Below, piece by piece: positions 23,705-50,136 of a stretch of DNA of 64,000 nucleotides. The position numbers were made by a program, and so were the translations under genes. A model generated the notes under the pieces. It ran no database searches. It saw nothing but the letters and a program-made list of their open reading frames with translations, and had not been told where the DNA came from. Source of the stretch: an uncultured Gammaproteobacteria bacterium (GTDB lineage: Bacteria > Pseudomonadota > Gammaproteobacteria > JAURND01); contig CAWCOU010000001.1 in NCBI GenBank assembly GCA_963797335.1, forward strand, positions 10,963 to 74,962. Reading direction: 5' to 3'. The number at the start of each line of letters is the position of its first letter. The first letter of the stretch is position 1.

Positions 23705-25020
23705 AAACGATGAGGCAAGAAAATACATTTGATCTGGTCATCGTCGGCGGCGGTTTAGCCGGCGCTAGCTTGGCGTTGGCGCTAGTCGATCAGCCGCTAA
23801 AAATAGCGGTGATTGAGGCAAAAGACGAACTGCGACCCGATGACAGAGCCCTGGCGCTTTCTTTCTCCAGTGCGTTGATCTTAAAAAATATCGGCATCTG
23901 GACTGCGATTGCGCCCCAAGCAACGCCTATTCTCTCCGTGCACGTCTCGGATGCAAACCATTTTAATCGTGTGCGGATGACCGCGGCGGAATTAAATACA
24001 CCGGCATTGGGCTATGTCATCTTAGCGCAAGCCATCTTAAACCACGTGCAACAACAAGTACGGCAACGTTCGGAAATCACCTGGATTTGCCCGGCGCAAT
24101 TGCAAGCTGCGCAACGCAGTGACTCCGGTTACGAGCTACAATTGGCCACTGCACAAGGTGATCGTACTGTCCATACTCGATTACTCGTTGCTGCCGATGG
24201 CAGTGATTCACCGACACGACAGTGTTTGGGGATTACCACCAGCCAGCAGGAATACCCGGAAATGGCGGTTTCTTGCCGTATCACAGCAGCAGAACATCAC
24301 GGTGTTGCCTTCGAACGTTTTAGCCCAGCGGGAATACTGGCGGCGCTGCCAGTCGCTCCGCAGGAGCGCGTCGTCATTTGGACGGTGCCACGCGCGAAGG
24401 CGGAACAGTTGTTACAAATGGATTCGCAGGCTTTTCAAGAAACCTTGCAACAGGCCTGGGGTTATCGTTTAGGCGCCATCCGCCAGGTGATGTCTCGTCG
24501 CGCATTTCCTCTGCGCAGTATGAAGGCAAATCAATCGATACTACCCGGTGCGCTGTTGTTGGGCAATGCCGCTCATACCTTGCATCCGGTTGCTGCCCAA
24601 GGTTTCAATTTAACCCTGCGTGATATCGCGGTATTAGCGGAAGTCATTGCCAATGCGGTGAGCGCGGGAAAAAATCCCGGTGATTTATCGGTGTTAGAAG
24701 AATACCAACAACGCCGCAGCGCCGAGCAACAACAATTACTGTGGGCAACCGATGGCTTGGTTTCTCTGTTCTCCAGCACTTGGTTGCCCTTCGTGCTCGG
24801 CCGCAATATGGGCTTACTCGGCCTCACGGTATTGCCTCCGCTCAAACGAGTGTTTGCGAAAAAGGCCATGGGCCTTTCTGGCGCTCTACCGAAATTAGTG
24901 CGTGGGGTTGCTTTGTTAACTGACCCCATAGGTGACAAATCACTTCTTTCTTCTTTTACTAAATCAGGAGATCAAATCAATGGAAACATCCAAGCAAAAA
25001 AAACTATCCAGTCTCGATGA
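23701..25020 (+). CDS. ubiH: 2-octaprenyl-6-methoxyphenol hydroxylase (UbiH family FAD monooxygenase)
   Basis: IVGGGLAG, LLVAADG, LGNAAHTLHPVAAQGFNLTLRD; follows pepP; extended C-terminus overlaps the next gene. Confidence 0.9.
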   Translation: MKTMRQENTFDLVIVGGGLAGASLALALVDQPLKIAVIEAKDELRPDDRALALSFSSALILKNIGIWTAIAPQATPILSVHVSDANHFNRVRMTAAELNTPALGYVILAQAILNHVQQQVRQRSEITWICPAQLQAAQRSDSGYELQLATAQGDRTVHTRLLVAADGSDSPTRQCLGITTSQQEYPEMAVSCRITAAEHHGVAFERFSPAGILAALPVAPQERVVIWTVPRAKAEQLLQMDSQAFQETLQQAWGYRLGAIRQVMSRRAFPLRSMKANQSILPGALLLGNAAHTLHPVAAQGFNLTLRDIAVLAEVIANAVSAGKNPGDLSVLEEYQQRRSAEQQQLLWATDGLVSLFSSTWLPFVLGRNMGLLGLTVLPPLKRVFAKKAMGLSGALPKLVRGVALLTDPIGDKSLLSSFTKSGDQINGNIQAKKTIQSR

Positions 25021-25522
25021 CATAAAAAAAATGGCCCGGCAATCCATCGAAGATGGCGCTGTGACCAAAGACTATCCCTTGGATTTGGAAAAAGCATATC
25101 AGCTACTCAATGCGGCACTGGGCACCGAAATTATGTGCGTTCTACGCTATCGCCATCACCAAGTCATCGCCAAAGGAATCGACCGTCCCCAGGTCGCTGC
25201 AGAATTCGAAGAACATGCCATGGATGAAGAACGCCATATGATGATGATCGCCGAGCGAATCAATCAACTCGGCGGAAACCCCGACTTTAATCCAGCCACC
25301 GTTGCGCAACGAACGGCCACAGAATACGGCCAAGGCACTGATATACTCAAATTGATTGAAGAAGACCTGGTAGCCGAAAGAATCGCCATCATGGTCTATC
25401 GAGAAATGATAGACTGGTTCGGCACCGACGACCCCACTACCCGGCGCATGCTCGAAGAAATTCTAAAAGACGAAGAAGACCACGCCGACGATCTGGCTGA
25501 TTTATTAAACATCAAAAAATGA
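24980..25522 (+). CDS. Ferritin-like/bacterioferritin-family di-iron protein
   Basis: ALGTEIMCVLRY, DEERH, EDLVAERIA, DEEDH di-iron motifs; ATG 24980 with AGGAG SD. Confidence 0.88.
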   Translation: METSKQKKLSSLDDIKKMARQSIEDGAVTKDYPLDLEKAYQLLNAALGTEIMCVLRYRHHQVIAKGIDRPQVAAEFEEHAMDEERHMMMIAERINQLGGNPDFNPATVAQRTATEYGQGTDILKLIEEDLVAERIAIMVYREMIDWFGTDDPTTRRMLEEILKDEEDHADDLADLLNIKK

Positions 25523-25527
25523 CCCCT

Positions 25528-25702
25528 GGGTTGGGGGAGGGCGAATGGATAACGCGAGACTTTACCCTCTCCCCTAACCCTCTCCCGCGAATAGGTTTGC
25601 AGCTTTTGCCCAAACTCCTCGCGCGAGAGAGGGGGTTTACAGTGCTAATCGTTAATCCAGTGCCTACTCAGTTGACTAAAAAAGATGTGTGCATACCTTA
25701 GG
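25528..25702. mobile_element. Half copy of MITE family B (one TIR)
   Basis: Matches the reverse complement of 59233-59410; ends in a degenerate TIR ...GATGTGTGCATACCTTAGG abutting the Rpn stop codon. Confidence 0.85.
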
Positions 25703-25703
25703 C

Positions 25704-26546
25704 CTATAATTCCTCGATTTCCTCAACAGAAAGCTCAATAAGCGAAGCAATTTCTTTTTTGTCTAGACCCTTATTCAACAATTTACGCACAACTCCCTGT
25801 TTTGCATGAAGCATGCCTTCTTCCCACCCTTTTTTCTTGGCTCCATAAACCAATGTTTTTTCAATACTGACGGCATCCCAATATTTGTCATATGATGTTA
25901 ATTCGGCAGGCGTATAAGCTGATTCCTCCGCCAAATCCACCGCTTTTTTAATTTCTGGAACAGTTAACCATTCATCGGGAATCTGTTGGGATTTTTCATT
26001 TAATTCCGACATAAAACGCAACCACAAAATATGTAATTTTTTTTCTTGAATATTCTTCGCCTTAAATTTAGGCAGTTCAATAAAAATTAACTGCAAATCT
26101 TTAATTTCAGCTTTCTGTGGTTTGGCGACATTCACGATTTTATAATGATGGTACCAATCGCTGTCATCGGGCTCAAATACCGTATTAATTAATCCCAAGC
26201 CATACACAGGTCTTAATAACTCATACTGTTCTCCTTTCTCCAATTGGGTCACATAGGCTTTACTGGCATTAAATAGCATGCGTTGCATAAAACCAGTGGT
26301 CCACTGGATTTGCATTTCGACAATAAATACGCGGCCTTGTTGGTCAGTACATCGCACATCGACAACGGTATATTTGAAGCTGGGGATGCGTGGCACTTGT
26401 TCACTGGGTAGGTATTCTAGATTTTGGATCAAACCATCGTAAGGAAGAGGGAGCACGGAGTTGAGGAAGCTCTTCAACAACTCCGGGTGTTGACCAAAGA
26501 TTTTTTTAAAAACGATATCGGTTTTTGGATCAAGGTAGCGTGCCAT
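25704..26546 (-). CDS. Rpn family recombination-promoting PD-(D/E)XK nuclease/putative transposase
   Basis: YLDPKTDIVFKKIFG, VDVRCTD..GRVFIVEMQ, FIELPKF; ATG 26546 with GGAGGA SD. Confidence 0.92.
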   Translation of the reverse strand: MARYLDPKTDIVFKKIFGQHPELLKSFLNSVLPLPYDGLIQNLEYLPSEQVPRIPSFKYTVVDVRCTDQQGRVFIVEMQIQWTTGFMQRMLFNASKAYVTQLEKGEQYELLRPVYGLGLINTVFEPDDSDWYHHYKIVNVAKPQKAEIKDLQLIFIELPKFKAKNIQEKKLHILWLRFMSELNEKSQQIPDEWLTVPEIKKAVDLAEESAYTPAELTSYDKYWDAVSIEKTLVYGAKKKGWEEGMLHAKQGVVRKLLNKGLDKKEIASLIELSVEEIEEL

Positions 26547-26656
26547 AAAATCCTCCATGGGTAACCAACTAAATGATTCCCTGAGAATGTCTGGTTAGCC
26601 ATGAACTGTCAATACCGTATTTCCTGAAGCTCCCTGCACATAAAATCCGTACTTAA

Positions 26657-35972: not shown

Positions 35973-35990
35973 ATATTAAAATAATCTTAA
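35973..35990 (-). promoter_or_regulatory. Second copy of the 18-bp PmrA-like motif
   Basis: ATATTAAAATAATCTTAA, identical to 8346-8363, 25 bp upstream of the start. Confidence 0.5.
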
Positions 35991-36168
35991 CAATCCATCG
36001 CTTCAACAATTGGCATAAATTGTAACCAATTGATTTTGTAGAGTTTCGCTTATTTGTATATATTCTACACAGTTTCTTACCTTAAGGCAACCTTTATTGC
36101 TGGTTTTGGAGGACAAGGGGTGGGTAATCTATAAAGTCTATTTATTTCAGTAGGTTATCTTTATGTGC

Positions 36169-36401
36169 CTGTGAGTGAGCATTTGATTAGAGGTTAGCAC
36201 TGTAAGCCTCCTCTCCCGCGCGAGGGGCTTGAATAAAGGCACTGAACTTGTTCGCGGGAGAGGGTTGAGGAGAGGGCTAATGGATAGCGCGAGACTTTAC
36301 CCTCTCCCCTAACCCTCTCCCGCGAATAGGTTTGCAGCTTTTGCCCAAACTTCTCGCGCGGGAGAGGGAGTTTACAGTGCTAATCGTTAATCCGGTGCCT
36401 A
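36169..36401. mobile_element. MITE family B internal core lacking both TIRs
   Basis: Matches the reverse complement of ~59270-59500 with scattered substitutions. Confidence 0.85.
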
Positions 36402-36741
36402 TGGAGATATTTAGGGATGAGAGCCGCCAGCATTTCCAGGGAGTGTTTTATTTCGCATAGAGGGGCTTTCTTTCGTAGAGGAAAATCCAGCCTTTGGCGA
36501 TACGATAAATAACCCAAATCAAATCCAGAATCAGGATGATGAAGCCAACGAAAATCCAGAAGGAAATTAAGCCGAGCAGACCCCACAGCAAGCCATACCA
36601 GAACGTGCGGATTTGCCATTGGAAATGAGAGGCAAGCCAAGTGCCTTTGATGGGTTCTTTGTCCACACAATAATGCATAATGACAGCAATAATAAAAGGC
36701 AGGCCAAACACCAGGCCGGCTGCTTGTAGAATGTAAATAGT

Positions 36742-38524
<1,783 letters not shown>

Positions 38525-43142: not shown

Positions 43143-43745
43143 ATGTCGCGTTCTGATTTCAATACTCCTGAAAAATCGCCCCAAAAGAAAACGCAACGGT
43201 TGGCGCTTATCTTGTTGATCTGCGCCGTTGCCATGTTTGGTTTCGGTTACGCCCTGGTGCCTTTGTATGATGTGCTTTGTAAATCGTTGGGCTTTAATGG
43301 CAAGACCTCCGGACAGGTGAGCAGTGCCGTGAGCTCGGTCGATATGACCCGCCTGGTGACGGTGCAATTCCTCGCCACTAAAAATGCCAATTTACCGTGG
43401 AAATTTTATCCGTATCGTACGGTAGTGGAAGTTCACCCCGGGCAAAATACCCATGTCGCGTATTTTGCCAAAAATGACAGCGACCATACGATGACGGTGC
43501 AAGCCATTCCCAGCGTCGCGCCGGGACCCGCAGCGAAATACTTGAAAAAGACAGAATGTTTTTGCTTTGCTCAGCAAACCCTGGCCAGTCACGACACCAT
43601 GGACATGCCGCTGATATTTCACCTCGACCGGGATTTGCCAAAGGATATCCACACCGTGACTTTATCCTATACGTTGTTCGATGTGACCCATATGAAGAAA
43701 ACATCCACGCAACCACAAAATAAAAATAGCTTTCAACAATCGTAA
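43143..43745 (+). CDS. ctaG: Cytochrome c oxidase assembly protein CtaG/Cox11
   Basis: VPLYDVLC, KTECFCF, LSYTLF. Confidence 0.95.
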   Translation: MSRSDFNTPEKSPQKKTQRLALILLICAVAMFGFGYALVPLYDVLCKSLGFNGKTSGQVSSAVSSVDMTRLVTVQFLATKNANLPWKFYPYRTVVEVHPGQNTHVAYFAKNDSDHTMTVQAIPSVAPGPAAKYLKKTECFCFAQQTLASHDTMDMPLIFHLDRDLPKDIHTVTLSYTLFDVTHMKKTSTQPQNKNSFQQS

Positions 43746-43840: not shown

Positions 43841-43869
43841 TCTCCTTCTCCCCTTGTGGGAGAAGGAGA
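43841..43869. repeat. Family F hairpin within the cox operon
   Basis: TCTCCTTCTCCCCTTGTGGGAGAAGGAGA. Confidence 0.8.
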
Positions 43870-43915
43870 ATTAGCCCGCGCTCCCAGGTAAAACATACTT
43901 ATCAGGAATCATCCT

Positions 43916-44797
43916 ATGTCATCACATTCCAAAGGGAGTTACTACCTACCTGCGCCCAGTCATTGGCCCATCGTCGGTTCTATCGCCTTATTCTGCATCA
44001 TGTTTGGTGCAGCCAACTGGTTGCACCAAGTCTCCTACGGCCCGATATTTTTTGTCGTCGGAATTTCCCTGCTCATCTTCATGCTATTCGGCTGGTTTGC
44101 CACCGTGATTCGCGAAGGACAGCAAGGTTTATACGACAACAAACAATTAGACCGATCTTTCCGCTGGGGAATGTGTTGGTTTATTTTCTCAGAAGTCATG
44201 TTCTTCGGTGCCTTTTTCGGCACCTTATTCTATGTCCGCGAATTTTCCGTCCCCTGGCTTGCCGGAGAAGGCCATGGCGTCATGACCCATCTATTACTCT
44301 GGCCCAATTTCACAGGCGCATGGCCGGTACTACAAAACCCCAACCCAGCCGCATTCGTTGCCCCCAAAAGCGTCATGGAAACCTGGGGCCTGCCAGCATT
44401 AAACACCTTAATTTTGCTCACCAGCGGCGTGACCATCACCATCGCTCACTGGGGTATAGTCAAACACAATCGAATACAAGCATTAGTAGGCCAAGGACTA
44501 ACCGTACTACTAGGCCTATGCTTCCTGACGATGCAAGCCCACGAATACACCATTGCCTACCTAGAAAAAGGATTAACCCTAGGCTCCGGTATCTTCGGCA
44601 CCACCTTCTTCATGCTCACCGGCTTTCACGCCCTACACGTCACCATCGGCACCATCATGCTGATCACCATCTTCTTCCGCATCTATCGTCACCACTTCGA
44701 TAAACACAGCCACTTCGCCTTCGAAGCCGTCTCTTGGTATTGGCACTTCGTCGACGTCGTCTGGTTAATGCTATTTGTATTCGTATATTGGATGTAG
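43916..44797 (+). CDS. coxC: Cytochrome c oxidase subunit III
   Basis: FIFSEVMFF, TGFHALHV, WYWHFVDVVW. Confidence 0.97.
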   Translation: MSSHSKGSYYLPAPSHWPIVGSIALFCIMFGAANWLHQVSYGPIFFVVGISLLIFMLFGWFATVIREGQQGLYDNKQLDRSFRWGMCWFIFSEVMFFGAFFGTLFYVREFSVPWLAGEGHGVMTHLLLWPNFTGAWPVLQNPNPAAFVAPKSVMETWGLPALNTLILLTSGVTITIAHWGIVKHNRIQALVGQGLTVLLGLCFLTMQAHEYTIAYLEKGLTLGSGIFGTTFFMLTGFHALHVTIGTIMLITIFFRIYRHHFDKHSHFAFEAVSWYWHFVDVVWLMLFVFVYWM

Positions 44798-44817
44798 TAT
44801 GAGACCTGCCACCTTGA

Positions 44818-45112
44818 GAGCTTGTCACTAACAGAAGGGGTGGCGCGGAGGGGAGCCTTATTTTTTGCGCAGCAAAAAATGAGTACCGCAGCGACAGGAC
44901 CCCGGATGCACCTAAGCAATTAAAGGGGTCTTAAGGGGGTCAAGTCTGTTAAGGGGGTCAAGTCTGGATTTAAGCCGTATTAAAGGCAGAAATCCAGACT
45001 TGACCCTTTTTCGGGAGCTTGTCACTAACAGAAGGGGTGGCGCGGAGGGGAGCCTTATTTTTTGCGCAGCAAAAAATGAGTACCGCAGCGACAGGACCCC
45101 GGATGCACCTAA
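44818..45112. repeat. Composite: two identical 98-bp direct repeats (family D) flanking a family C hairpin with stuttered left arm
   Basis: 44818-44915 = 45015-45112; the 18-mer TTAAGGGGGTCAAGTCTG occurs twice (44931-44966); right arm 44990-45006. Confidence 0.93.
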
Positions 45113-45124
45113 CAAGAACCGCTC

Positions 45125-46012
45125 TCAAACACTTTTTTCCAAAGAAGGAACTACCACATTAGCATGAGTCAAAGGCTGATGCTTTCGCACTTTCAAATCA
45201 TGAAACTGAACCAGAAACACAGCAGCTATCCAAGGATAAATAATCGTATCCGCCAGAATATTCACCAGCACATTCGCGATAGGAAACGGTGGCGATATAA
45301 CCAAGCCTAAAACCAAATTCACCAGCTGATTAATCACAAAACCAAAAGCCAAAGGAATCAACAACACCACAAAAGTAGCCCACCAACGCCCCTTCACCAA
45401 ATAAAAACTCTGCTTCAACGACTTCACAACCGGCCAATTATCAAGAAGAATCAGCACATTGACCAAACACAAATACGTCCCCACGACAATCCACACCAAG
45501 GCCAGTACACCAATAGCACTAATCGACAGCGCTGAAGGAGAGAAAGTAGCCGTTTTAGCCACCAATGAAACCAGCAATAAAATAACGCCTATCACCAACA
45601 TAAGTATCAATAAACAAGCCAAAATCACCAAATTATTGAGAATAAAACCGCCAATCACCGGAAAGAATTTCTTCCCAGCCATTTTTAACGAGGTAATCGG
45701 AGTGGGAGCCGCAGCTGGATCAACAGCGGCCAGCGTTTGCATGCGGTGCAATATAAACGTTTCCCCGTAAATTAAAATCAGCGTACCGATGATGCTTAAA
45801 ATAAAATCAGTCGTGCTAAAAGCGTTTAATCCTTGCGCTTGAGTTGCCAATAAAGAAAAATTGCCTGCCAATTGCGGAGAAGTCAGTAACAGCAACGGCA
45901 GTAGCCAGAGTAGCTGCCAACGCCAGATACGGCTAAATGTATACTTGTACAGGCTAAAACTGTCCAATAACACGCCAGCAGGTGTTTGTGGTTCCTTCGA
46001 AAAATTAAACAT
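45125..46012 (-). CDS. Multi-pass membrane protein (YciC-like), paralog of 22916..23704
   Basis: Six or more TM segments; SLKQSFYLVKGRWWATF, FHDLKVR. Confidence 0.75.
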   Translation of the reverse strand: MFNFSKEPQTPAGVLLDSFSLYKYTFSRIWRWQLLWLLPLLLLTSPQLAGNFSLLATQAQGLNAFSTTDFILSIIGTLILIYGETFILHRMQTLAAVDPAAAPTPITSLKMAGKKFFPVIGGFILNNLVILACLLILMLVIGVILLLVSLVAKTATFSPSALSISAIGVLALVWIVVGTYLCLVNVLILLDNWPVVKSLKQSFYLVKGRWWATFVVLLIPLAFGFVINQLVNLVLGLVISPPFPIANVLVNILADTIIYPWIAAVFLVQFHDLKVRKHQPLTHANVVVPSLEKSV

Positions 46013-46041
46013 ATCTCTTCCTCTTCAATTGTCAACAGACC

Positions 46042-47673: not shown

Positions 47674-48495
47674 TTAAAGTAGTTTTTTAACAAAACGCAC
47701 TATCTCTTCCTGCTTATACGGCTCTTGTCGCCGAGTGTAATTGGAATAAATAGCTAAGTAGGTTTTTAGGCGAAAATAAGTGGTGTAATCGGGAGCCTCC
47801 ACTGAAAAAGCAGTGGGTATCTCCAATTCGAGTTCTTGATAACGCATGAGAATTTCCGACCAGGTTTCTTGATGTAGTAAGGCGGCGGTTTCTTCTTCGT
47901 TTAAAGAGATATCTATTTTCGTCAATTCATGGGGGATTTTTTCTAAATAGTGATGACGGTAGGTATCCCATTGTTGATCAAATGAGGGAATCAGTTGTTC
48001 AATTTGTTGAATTTTTTGTAATAATTCTTCTTGGTATTGTTGTAGATTTTTTTGCAGTTCCACGGTTTTTTTGCTGGCTGCTTCTAGTGCGGCGATGGAT
48101 TCTAGTAGTTCTTTTTCTTGAGCGGCATTGGAGTCAGCTAGTTTCTGGCGTAATGAAGCTAGGGTATCTTTCATTAGGCGGCGTTGGTTGTCGGCGAGTT
48201 CGATGCTGGATAGTACTTCTCTATGCACTTTGAAGGCTGAGATGTAGGCGTGCATGCTGGGTCTGATGGCTGTTTGGGGGTTTATGAGTGCTTCGTTGAT
48301 TTGGGAGTTGCTCAGCAGGTTGAACATGCTGGTGTCTAGTTGCGGTATGGTTCCTTCGGTGGGAACAGGTTTCGGGCGGGAGTACTTCCGAATAAGCGTG
48401 GAGAGGCTTTTGATCTCGCTTAAGAGGGTCCTAGCATAACTGGAGTATCCAGTGGTGGCAGGGCTTTTTTTCATAAGTAGGTATCTGACTTGCAT
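47674..48495 (-). CDS. Hypothetical coiled-coil protein
   Basis: Central heptad-rich L/E/K/Q segment. Confidence 0.7.
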   Translation of the reverse strand: MQVRYLLMKKSPATTGYSSYARTLLSEIKSLSTLIRKYSRPKPVPTEGTIPQLDTSMFNLLSNSQINEALINPQTAIRPSMHAYISAFKVHREVLSSIELADNQRRLMKDTLASLRQKLADSNAAQEKELLESIAALEAASKKTVELQKNLQQYQEELLQKIQQIEQLIPSFDQQWDTYRHHYLEKIPHELTKIDISLNEEETAALLHQETWSEILMRYQELELEIPTAFSVEAPDYTTYFRLKTYLAIYSNYTRRQEPYKQEEIVRFVKKLL

Positions 48496-48711
48496 TTAAC
48501 GTGGTTTATTTTAACATTTTTTTCGGTAATGGCGATAATTATTTAAAGAGGGGGCGGAGCCACCCTACGCATGCTATATAATGATTAACCTTTCTTAATG
48601 GAGAAGCTCAGGGGCTTGCAAGCAGCTACGCATTGGCTTAGGATACGGTATGACTGCCTTGTATAATCAATAAGTTGCCCTCTCTCATTTCGCGTCGATT
48701 AGGAACGTATT

Positions 48712-50094
48712 ATGCTAAATTGTTTTGCACATGCATCTGGCCAAGCTGGTATCCCCATTATTCCGCTTAAAGAAAAGCAGTTATCGGTTTGGGCGGAGCG
48801 GCAAACGCAGTATGTGAAGAATTGGTTGAAATCAACCGGGTATCGAGCCAAGGCTGGGGCGATTGGGCTGATATGTAATTCAGAGGGGTTGTTGGAAACG
48901 GTGTTGGTTGGCTTAAATCATGCCGAGGACTGGAATGTTTTTGGGCAATTGGCGACTCAATTGCCGGAAGGGGTTTATTTTATTGCCGAATCTTTGCCGC
49001 CACGGGCGCTTTATTTGGCTTATCTTGCGTTTGGCGCAGGTAGTTATCAATTTACTCCTTACAAAAAGGCTACTCCTTCAGGAGCGAAGCTGTTATTGCC
49101 TAAACAAGATTTGAATATTGCTTGGTTGGAAGCGGTGTTGCGGGCTACTTACTTGGTTCGAGATTTGATTAATACACCGGCTGAGGATATGACGCCTTTG
49201 GATTTGGCGGCGGTGGCGGTTGGTCTGGCTAATGAGTTCGGTGGGGTTGCTAGGGTTATTGAGGGGGATGAATTACTGACCCATAATTTTCCTGCCATCC
49301 ATGCGGTGGGTCGTGCCAGTCGTCATGTACCTTGTCTGATTGATTTTACCTGGGGCAATGTCAAGCATCCTAAAGTCACATTGGTAGGGAAGGGTATTTC
49401 CTTTGATACGGGTGGTCTCAACCTGAAGAATGCTGCCGGTATGGCATTGATGAAGAAAGACATGGGGGGGGCGGCTCATGTGCTAGGGTTGGCAGTGATT
49501 ATTATGACGCTTGGCCTGCCGGTGCGATTGCGGGTATTAATTCCTGCGGCGGAAAATGCGGTTTCTGGTGCGGCTTACCACCCGGGTGATGTGTTGATGA
49601 CTCGCAAGGGTATTACCGTGGAGGTTACTAATACCGATGCGGAGGGACGTCTCGTGCTCAGCGATGCTTTACAGGCCGCTGTTGAGGAGACTCCGGAGTT
49701 ATTAATGGATTTTGCGACGTTGACGGGGGCTTCTAAAGTGGCCTTAGGGACAGACATTGCTGGTTTATATTGCAATGATGATTTGCTGGCCCAGGAAATT
49801 GTCGGTTGTGGTGATGCAGAAAATGACCCAGTGTGGCGCATGCCACTTTACGCGCCGTATCGTAAAATGTTGGATAGTAAAATAGCGGATATCATCAATG
49901 CCCCGTCTTCCGGTTACGCTGGCGCTATTACCGCCGCGCTGTTTCTGAAAGAGTTTGTTCCAGATAGCATCCCCTGGGGTCATTTCGATATCATGGCTTG
50001 GAATGTCAGCAGTAAACCAGCAGCTCCGGAGGGTGGCGAAACGTCAGCGCTACGAGCCGTCGCTCAGTATCTATATCAACGTTACAAATCTTAG
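48712..50094 (+). CDS. M17 leucyl aminopeptidase family protein
   Basis: VGKGISFDTGG, MKKDMGGAA, NTDAEGRL, ATLTGA, HFDI. Confidence 0.95.
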   Translation: MLNCFAHASGQAGIPIIPLKEKQLSVWAERQTQYVKNWLKSTGYRAKAGAIGLICNSEGLLETVLVGLNHAEDWNVFGQLATQLPEGVYFIAESLPPRALYLAYLAFGAGSYQFTPYKKATPSGAKLLLPKQDLNIAWLEAVLRATYLVRDLINTPAEDMTPLDLAAVAVGLANEFGGVARVIEGDELLTHNFPAIHAVGRASRHVPCLIDFTWGNVKHPKVTLVGKGISFDTGGLNLKNAAGMALMKKDMGGAAHVLGLAVIIMTLGLPVRLRVLIPAAENAVSGAAYHPGDVLMTRKGITVEVTNTDAEGRLVLSDALQAAVEETPELLMDFATLTGASKVALGTDIAGLYCNDDLLAQEIVGCGDAENDPVWRMPLYAPYRKMLDSKIADIINAPSSGYAGAITAALFLKEFVPDSIPWGHFDIMAWNVSSKPAAPEGGETSALRAVAQYLYQRYKS

Positions 50095-50101
50095 TTTTGA
50101 T

Positions 50102-50136
50102 CTTATCTCCTATGCCCACAAGGGGAGAAGGATAAG
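50102..50136. repeat. Degenerate family F hairpin
   Basis: CCCACAAGGGGAGAAGG, the reverse complement of the family F core. Confidence 0.6.

Follow-up and report, generated by a model that had tools for sequence, protein, structure and literature searches.

At the junction between the cytochrome c oxidase gene coxC and a convergent membrane-protein gene, the genome of an uncultured Gammaproteobacteria bacterium carries a zone of about 2 kb in which most silent sites are A or C on one DNA strand, in both genes alike. We analyzed a window of 64,000 nucleotides (GenBank assembly GCA_963797335.1, contig CAWCOU010000001.1, positions 10,963 to 74,962), in which this zone, here called halo 1, extends from 43.9 to 45.9 kb. 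It covers the end of a plus-strand operon, coxB-coxA-ctaG-coxC, in which coxC faces a gene for a membrane protein of 295 amino acids across an intergenic region of 327 bp. The bias is nearly confined to synonymous sites, is of the transition type, and is set by strand and position. It had been noticed in a first-pass annotation made from the sequence alone; the observation is real, and it is stronger than first stated.

43900..45900, no strand assigned: halo 1; silent sites about 0.84–0.96 A/C on the plus strand, that is, G/T on the minus strand
43916..44797, plus strand: coxC, cytochrome c oxidase subunit III (PF00510)
45125..46012, minus strand: membrane-protein gene (DUF7847), whose orthologue in the related locus L084 carries PF25231

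Size and shape of halo 1

The bias was measured as plus-strand A+C at third codon positions, with Met and Trp excluded, in genes taken from the open reading frame (ORF) list and checked against Pfam. The window-wide mean is 0.51, and genes outside the halos all lie between 0.41 and 0.67. As whole genes, coxC reaches 0.72 and the facing DUF7847 gene 0.75, and the other genes of the operon stand at 0.55 (coxB), 0.46 (coxA) and 0.45 (ctaG); the value for coxA agrees with the figure of about 50% given in the first-pass annotation. Its count of 52 C- or A-ending codons among the 60 non-Met/Trp codons in 44549–44734 was reproduced exactly, in the coxC frame. Third positions of coxC are A 0.24, C 0.48, G 0.14 and T 0.14, and their A+C fraction by quarter, from 5′ to 3′, is 0.67, 0.80, 0.84 and 0.85. 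The convergent gene had been described as rich in G/T-ending codons, and 75% of its own codons do end in G or T; by quarter, again from 5′ to 3′, its sense-strand G+T at third positions is 0.58, 0.66, 0.89 and 0.85.

A decay of the bias with distance, on which the original claim had been made to depend beforehand, is present on both sides. In 150-bp bins to the left of the intergenic region, starting at 43650, the A+C fraction is 0.53, 0.67, 0.74, 0.84, 0.83, 0.88 (at 44550) and 0.81, and to the right it is 0.86, 0.96 (45300–45449), 0.77, 0.69, 0.60 and 0.51 (at 45900). The best of the shapes tried was a flat top at 44336–45452 with exponential flanks of 352 bp on the left and 300 bp on the right, which is favored over a uniform model by a difference in the Akaike information criterion of about 156. 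Other fits gave a Gaussian centered at 44905 with a standard deviation of 664, or a box at 44000–45650. When third-position bases were permuted (n = 2000), the largest 200-site window reached 0.685, and the observed extremes are 0.885 and 0.225. In the Logan assembly of run ERR11523675, a 1-kb contig retrieved by exact-protein look-up matches 43842–44847 base for base; because this assembly is independent, an assembler artefact is unlikely.

Two further halos in the window

Two-sided skew was found at 3 of the 47 gene junctions of the window, namely at halo 1 and at two further zones.

47850..49800, no strand assigned: halo 2, inverted polarity with a G/T-rich plus strand; covers the genes at 47674–48495 (minus strand, 273 aa) and 48712–50094 (plus strand, M17 aminopeptidase)
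58450..60550, no strand assigned: halo 3, polarity of halo 1; covers the genes at 58557–59138 (minus strand, NUDIX) and 59884–60975 (plus strand, HMG-CoA reductase)

In halo 2, which equals halo 1 in strength, the third-position A+C falls to a minimum of 0.08 at 48150–48299. Halo 3 peaks at 0.94–0.96; its left edge is abrupt and coincides with a double hairpin at 58470–58545, and on the right a shoulder reaches to about 61200, into the next co-oriented gene. The bias thus tracks the DNA strand and not the gene. Across the window the polarity runs A/C, G/T, A/C, with sign flips within 3 kb, and halo 1 shares its polarity with the zone at 59 kb, as originally noted. In non-halo genes on either strand, sense third-position A+C is 0.50–0.55 with no gene-end effect.

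These observations exclude several ordinary sources of composition bias. Expression-linked codon bias was rejected because neighboring genes have opposite preferences, C/A-ending in one and G/T-ending in the other, and strong gradients occur within genes. A general effect of gene ends was rejected because non-halo genes are flat, and replication-associated strand skew was rejected because the window has three zones, each of about 2 kb, that alternate in polarity on a background of 0.50–0.55 on both strands. The first-pass annotation had argued against both expression-level and transcription-coupled bias. One polarity across opposed genes, with gradients inside them, confirms that the bias is neither linked to expression nor coupled to each gene's own transcription; the wider exclusion of transcription did not hold, since one long one-way transcript or R-loop across both genes could still produce the pattern.

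Three long alternative-frame or antisense ORFs lie inside halos (43963–44703 and 45459–45770 on the plus strand, 59802–60302 on the minus strand). They are by-products of the skew, because a strand that is nearly free of T at one codon phase has no stops in the shifted frame, and they should not be annotated as genes.

Kind of change at silent sites

At four-fold degenerate sites in halo 1 the plus strand is A 0.32, C 0.52, G 0.08 and T 0.08, compared with 0.22, 0.28, 0.29 and 0.22 in the background, so that A+C is 0.84 vs 0.50 and G+C 0.60 vs 0.56. Plus-strand C/(C+T) and A/(A+G) increase in step, and the pyrimidine fraction stays at about 0.5. Because G+C is barely altered, the shift is a keto-to-amino transition shift, that is, C>T and A>G on the minus strand, with no GC effect.

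Silent sites are saturated against all outgroups. Substitution spectra polarized with two outgroups were therefore uninformative and were discarded, and only a comparison of coxC with five relatives was informative. At coxC third positions where at least four of the five relatives agree, the window's branch has changed from T to C at 30 of 51 sites and from C to T at 1 of 13; the relatives' own branches are balanced in direction (T>C 8–12 vs C>T 3–16). The shift is also visible in leucine codons, which move from TTG to CTA where the sense strand is A/C-rich and towards TTG where it is G/T-rich: coxC has 12 CTA codons vs 3 in relatives, and the facing gene 24 TTG codons vs 8–9.

Codon positions 1 and 2 are hardly affected. 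Their A+C is 0.45 and 0.40 in coxC vs 0.44 and 0.40 in its orthologues, and in the other halo genes the difference does not exceed 0.05. Small shifts, from Ile to Val, Thr to Ala and Asn to Asp, occur in the membrane protein, which is poorly conserved. Unconverted sites revealed no strong nearest-neighbor preference.

Relatives and other bacteria

The closest CoxC proteins are 78–84% identical and come from five loci (L001, L082, L083, L084 and L086), three of which have the same neighboring genes. Gene order is kept in L001 and L084, where coxBA-ctaG-coxC is followed, beyond the junction, by the genes for DUF7847, CNNM, two further proteins, M17 and acyl-CoA dehydrogenase. In these two loci the plus-strand third-position A+C of the coxC, DUF7847 and M17 genes is 0.42–0.54, with no gradient, and no halo was found in the orthologous genes of any of the five. 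Orthologues of coxC next to a junction without the insert, the comparison chosen in advance as able to overturn the claim, likewise lack a gradient, with A+C of 0.26–0.60 in every quarter. A frame-aware scan of 166 other loci (about 2 Mb and about 657,000 third-position sites), including 80 metagenome loci with the same hairpin, resembling repetitive extragenic palindromes (REP-like), that occurs beside halo 1, found no comparable zone; an outlier in Legionella steelei proved to be a tandem peptide repeat. The halos are specific to this lineage. Our literature search found no description of such kilobase islands in bacteria.

The coxC gene of L083 (5230–6111, 81% identical) has a third-position A+C of 0.32 vs 0.42–0.44 in its neighbors, a mild deviation of opposite sign, and its contig stops shortly past the gene. 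The genes that separate coxC from the DUF7847 gene differ among relatives: a Sel1-repeat gene in L084 (10920–13295), three small genes in L001 (10879–13047) and two genes of unknown kind in L086 (3290–6123). The junction is a hotspot of gene turnover, and the window has only a block of repeats there. A horizontally acquired island was rejected, as codon positions 1 and 2 match those of orthologues, synteny with L084 and L001 is kept, and divergence ratios are normal.

Repeats at the center of halo 1

The intergenic region of halo 1 is filled by a composite of two repeat families, here called C and D.

44818..44915, plus strand: D repeat copy 1, 100% identical to copy 2; A+C 0.51
44916..45014, plus strand: C element, with a perfect 17-bp-stem hairpin at about 44954–45009 and GGGGTC half-sites before the hairpin; A+C 0.43
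45015..45112, plus strand: D repeat copy 2; D, C and D together form 1.5 units of a 197-bp tandem duplication

This D-C-D block lies at the center of the halo, as the first-pass annotation had it, but the causal role implied there for central repeats is not borne out. The block itself is unskewed, with an A+C of 0.50, no repeat was found at the center of halo 2, and other repeat copies have no halo. Within the window the D family occurs only at halo 1. The other C copy (884–972) likewise lies between convergent genes, its flanks stand at 0.53 and 0.57 with no halo, and the repeat-rich regions 1397–2102, 16025–16341 and 35973–37081 are flat. The repeats are younger than the bias, because the D copies are 100% identical and unskewed, and a miniature inverted-repeat transposable element (MITE) in the intergenic region of halo 3 is essentially at its family consensus. 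We conclude that the D-C-D repeats are probably later insertions into the intergenic site and not the cause. The block had no plasmid or phage matches.

The palindromic MITE of halo 3, of about 300 bp (59231–59530), contains a canonical G-quadruplex motif, GGGAGAGGGTAGGGGAGAGGG, near 59350 together with an inverted C-rich copy. Further copies of this element lie at 25528–25704 and 36169–36401, and a second MITE family is represented at 59560–59752, 1400–1537 and 16212–16259. A search of JGI metagenomes with a MITE core returned 0 matches.

A possible origin of the halos

Three kinds of process remain as explanations: a one-way transcript or R-loop, a central strand-specific nick or gap, and weak selection for strand purity. 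Our tentative preference, held with less than even confidence, is that C>T and A>G are locally in excess on one strand, the G/T-rich one, and are filtered by purifying selection; their source would be recurrent single-strandedness along an R-loop-like, leftward transcription unit of about 2 kb. At halo 1 the minus strand would gain C>T and A>G transitions at a much higher rate than their reversals, and selection would remove nearly all but the synonymous ones, leaving coxC C/A-ending and the facing gene G/T-ending. Two candidate signals bracket the zone, both as consensus matches only.

46008..46035, minus strand: sigma-70-like promoter (TTGACA, 16-nt spacer, TATGTT), a consensus match only, upstream of the DUF7847 gene and at the right-hand onset of halo 1
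43841..43869, minus strand: REP-like hairpin TCCTTCTCCCCTTGTGGGAGAAGGA, which scores as a minus-strand intrinsic terminator; related copies at 16078–16108 and 50106–50132

The hairpin sits exactly at the step-down of halo 1 from 0.67–0.70 to 0.53, between two plus-strand genes. A leftward transcript may start at the promoter-like site (46035–46008), cross the DUF7847 gene and the intergenic region, run antisense through coxC and stop at the hairpin (43869–43841). R-loops would result, or a D-loop primed by an R-loop, similar to that of ColE1 or of the mitochondrial control region, so that the G/T-rich strand along the unit would recurrently be single-stranded; the direction of the unit would set the polarity of the halo, and the D-C-D repeats would have been inserted into the intergenic site afterwards. 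This reading is favored because the direction of transcription is the simplest setter of polarity at this scale, and because each halo contains exactly one gene with a G/T-rich sense strand (DUF7847, M17 aminopeptidase and NUDIX, respectively). For coxC, the 273-aa gene and the HMG-CoA reductase gene, antisense read-through would be required. If the three halos are followed in the direction proposed for each, their flanks scale as 300, 499 and 499 bp at the onset, compared with 352, 128 and 96 bp at the end; two of the three thus have a gradual rise, of about 500 bp, and a sharp stop, of about 100–130 bp. Halo 3 stops at its double hairpin. A start from a double-strand break or a stalled fork would be expected to give opposite polarity on the two sides and is therefore unlikely.

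Several results weigh against this transcript-linked origin. The promoter and terminator scans are at chance level overall and revealed no promoter-like site where halo 2 would start, other genes of the window show no transcription-linked skew, and no bacterial precedent for the amplitude was found in the literature. C>T and A>G have progressed to a similar extent, whereas hydrolytic deamination acts on single-stranded DNA with a strong preference for C>T. Halo segments of genes show no increase in amino-acid divergence from relatives, and nonsynonymous transitions are barely directional (52 towards the halo state vs 38 away at codon position 1, 25 vs 26 at position 2); this near-absence of direction is in mild tension with a hypermutation burst. 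The intergenic regions at the centers of halos 1, 2 and 3 (IG1, IG2 and IG3) have A+C fractions of 0.50, 0.44 and 0.52, a far weaker skew than at the adjoining silent sites: IG2 is at 0.44 where third positions are at 0.1–0.3, and the non-repeat parts of IG3 are at 0.54 and 0.59. IG1 is almost wholly recent repeat, IG2 and the non-repeat part of IG3 are divergent-promoter regions, and the half of IG2 nearest the M17 gene contains blocks conserved with distant relatives. The weak intergenic skew requires that intergenic DNA be under constraint or turn over rapidly. Together with the absence of excess amino-acid change, it remains unexplained by the transcript-linked origin, and a long moderate bias or a fixation bias fits these two observations better than a hypermutation burst.

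Among the alternatives, a site-specific nick in the A/C-rich strand at the center could be widened both ways, or could misdirect long-patch mismatch repair, so that resynthesis fixes errors or lesions of the intact strand within about 1 kb on each side. Halos that are two-sided, of single polarity, about 2 kb long and centered in or near intergenic regions are what this process would leave, equal C>T and A>G is as expected of G·T and T·G mispairs, and polarity could follow the orientation of the nick site. We nevertheless consider it unlikely: the three centers share no oriented motif, no nickase gene was seen in the window, the center itself is unskewed, and the higher mutation rate that it predicts should bring extra amino-acid change, which is not seen. 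Weak selection at silent sites for strand-pure composition, in favor of a structure-free RNA or single strand of 2 kb or of Rho-loading control on read-through or antisense transcripts, would account better than hypermutation for a bias that is synonymous-only, with unraised amino-acid divergence and undirected nonsynonymous changes, as expected of a weak fixation bias. A/C-rich, G-poor RNA is an ideal substrate for Rho, and G/U-rich RNA evades it. The likelihood of such selection is nonetheless low in our view, as no function is known to need strand purity over 2 kb, paired genes end with opposite codon dialects and gradients ignore gene boundaries, intergenic sites that should be free to respond hardly do so, and the relatives do without strand purity.

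The D-C-D composite, with its hairpins and G-runs, might itself stall replication and leave adjacent single-stranded gaps, as replication risk sequences (RRS), which are structured repeats, do in E. coli. The block is at the fitted center and folds strongly as single-stranded DNA (z = −6.25), and the center of halo 3 also has MITEs, one of them with the G-quadruplex motif. An RRS programs single-stranded DNA of 0.65–1.2 kb next to itself, as lagging-strand gaps (PMC13308219). These gaps are described there as one-sided and always on the lagging-strand template, and the sections consulted mention no compositional footprint; the halos are two-sided and their polarity flips within 3 kb. Moreover, halo 2 has no repeat, five repeat-bearing intergenic regions in addition to that of the other C copy have no two-sided halo, and the central repeats, which are unskewed and either identical or matching their family consensus, postdate the bias, so that we regard a repeat-driven origin as quite improbable and the halos as unlike RRS. 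To our knowledge, RRS is the only described bacterial element that programs kilobase-scale single-strandedness at a fixed site. Recombinational import of patches of about 2 kb from a donor lineage or replicon with extreme strand skew would suit the size of transformation tracts and the variable gene content between coxC and the DUF7847 gene among relatives, but it is very unlikely given edges that are graded over 300–500 bp instead of stepped, amino-acid divergence from relatives that is equal inside and outside the halos, and the lack of such skew in any relative or other scanned locus. Although the source is a single metagenome-derived contig, an error of assembly, polishing or base-calling, or DNA damage, is scarcely credible: a second assembler gives the identical sequence, the changes are synonymous and respect the reading frame, and the proteins are intact with strong Pfam scores. 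Finally, there is a small chance that the halos reflect a natural targeted strand-specific mutator, which would act through a deaminase, a nickase or an error-prone polymerase at defined units of about 2 kb. Such a mutator would be nature's equivalent of engineered polymerase-deaminase fusions and would push the silent sites of selected loci to an asymmetry of mitochondrial grade. The halos could otherwise mark stable R-loop or D-loop structures that serve the bacterial chromosome as secondary replication or regulatory elements.

Comparison with known systems

The closest likeness is to vertebrate mitochondria, whose heavy strand is single-stranded during strand-displacement replication and whose control-region D-loop is primed from an R-loop. 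In both cases, C>T and A>G changes on one strand leave the other strand's silent sites at about 85–95% A/C with G at about 2–10% and the protein largely preserved; in the halos G+C is unchanged. In contrast, the mitochondrial effect covers a whole genome from a defined origin, and here it occurs in 2-kb islands of either polarity, 3 kb apart, with a flat top, decaying flanks and no origin identified. The GC and AT skew of bacterial replication is similarly a keto/amino asymmetry mainly at silent sites, with a G/T-rich leading strand, but it acts at the scale of chromosome arms, is small in amplitude and changes sign only at the origin and terminus.

The halos, if they arose as proposed, would resemble the products of transcription-associated mutagenesis and R-loops in being directional kilobase zones with promoter-like and terminator-like bounds and a G/T-rich non-template strand. 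Analogues are engineered fusions of a deaminase to T7 RNA polymerase (MutaT7 type) and vertebrate somatic hypermutation by AID, and a slow rise after the start resembles somatic hypermutation profiles. The halos differ in that one half of each runs antisense to a functional gene and other genes lack any such effect; natural bacterial transcription-linked skews amount to a few per cent. Diversity-generating retroelements and other targeted hypermutation share with the halos a localized, directional sequence change, and their other features are absent here. Such retroelements act on adenines of a variable region of about 100 bp, change the protein, and need a reverse transcriptase and a template repeat. 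One was rejected for this locus, as no reverse transcriptase domain was found among the window genes and no template/variable repeat pair was found, and the changes are synonymous transitions at A and C.

Motif and RNA scans of the halos

No known RNA or tRNA was found at the halo centers, and a search for an oriented motif common to the centers, starts or ends of the three halos gave only chance-level matches at the centers (GTGGCTCCG, TAAAGGCAGAAA). Away from the centers, the 11-mer TTGGAATGKSA, that is, TTGGAATG(T/G)(C/G)A, occurs at 43922–43932 (minus strand), 49998–50008 (plus strand) and 58612–58622 (minus strand), each time on the G/T-rich strand and at most about 150 bp from the same, proposed downstream, end of the halo. 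There is one other match in the window with at most one mismatch (57841); the motif was found post hoc and may be due to chance. GCTGGTG, which matches seven of the eight bases of E. coli Chi, occurs on the G/T-rich strand at 44419, 45263, 45320 and 60192 (minus strand) and at 48328 (plus strand), five times vs 1.0 expected from synonymous shuffles, which is not significant after multiple testing.

GATC sites are about 3-fold depleted in the halos (1.05 per kb vs 3.2 per kb overall), and the two longest GATC-free intervals of the window, 48412–50099 and 59131–61077, coincide with halos 2 and 3. Local failure of mismatch repair in a GATC desert was rejected as a cause: synonymous-codon shuffling gave 8.1 expected sites and 6 were observed, so the depletion is a consequence of halo codon usage. 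It might still have consequences if mismatch repair in this organism is directed by Dam.

The REP-like hairpin of halo 1 also occurs in relatives, including the intergenic region upstream of M17 in L084, and exact matches to its core number more than 120 in metagenomes from soil and elsewhere. Two of the copies are located on or slightly outside the outer edges of halos 1 and 2.

Other features of the window

A one-sided, weaker A/C bias (0.69–0.76) is seen in a ferritin-like gene at 24932–25703, which adjoins the MITE at 25528–25704 and a PD-(D/E)XK (PF12784) transposase-family gene at 25704–26558. This may be a fourth, partial halo, or else the C-ending codon preference that is ordinary in strongly expressed genes. 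A mevalonate-kinase-like gene on the right shoulder of halo 3 is split into overlapping ORFs, 60972–61400 and 61373–62005, and the second opens midway through the N-terminal motif of GHMP kinases, which suggests a frameshift due either to a pseudogene or to an error in the sequence. In the long intergenic stretch beside the seryl-tRNA synthetase gene, three overlapping copies of a 179-nt unit, spaced by 96 bp and 97–100% identical, occupy 36748–37118.

The window also encodes a Sel1/TPR-repeat protein of 1950 amino acids (8377–14229) and a complete mevalonate-pathway cluster (59884–63943: HMG-CoA reductase, two GHMP kinases and diphosphomevalonate decarboxylase). Both are reminiscent of Legionellales and Coxiella-like intracellular gammaproteobacteria, and one CoxC homologue at 67% identity is named Coxiellaceae.

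Significance

Strand asymmetry in bacteria is usually seen as a weak, chromosome-wide by-product of replication and transcription. In this organism it reaches the amplitude known from vertebrate mitochondria in sharply bounded 2-kb zones whose polarity reverses within 3 kb and which the relatives lack. The phenomenon belongs with strand-asymmetric mutational skew, and there is a real chance that its cause is new. Such zones distort predictions of codon usage, horizontal transfer and skew-based origins, and they create long spurious ORFs in alternative frames. If persistent single-strandedness in R-loops, D-loops or gaps is the cause, the zones would be an evolutionary record of these structures that can be read from the sequence, and would help to locate them in organisms that have not been cultured. 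With a dedicated mutator or a selected strand property as the cause, the zones would represent a new genome-level mechanism.

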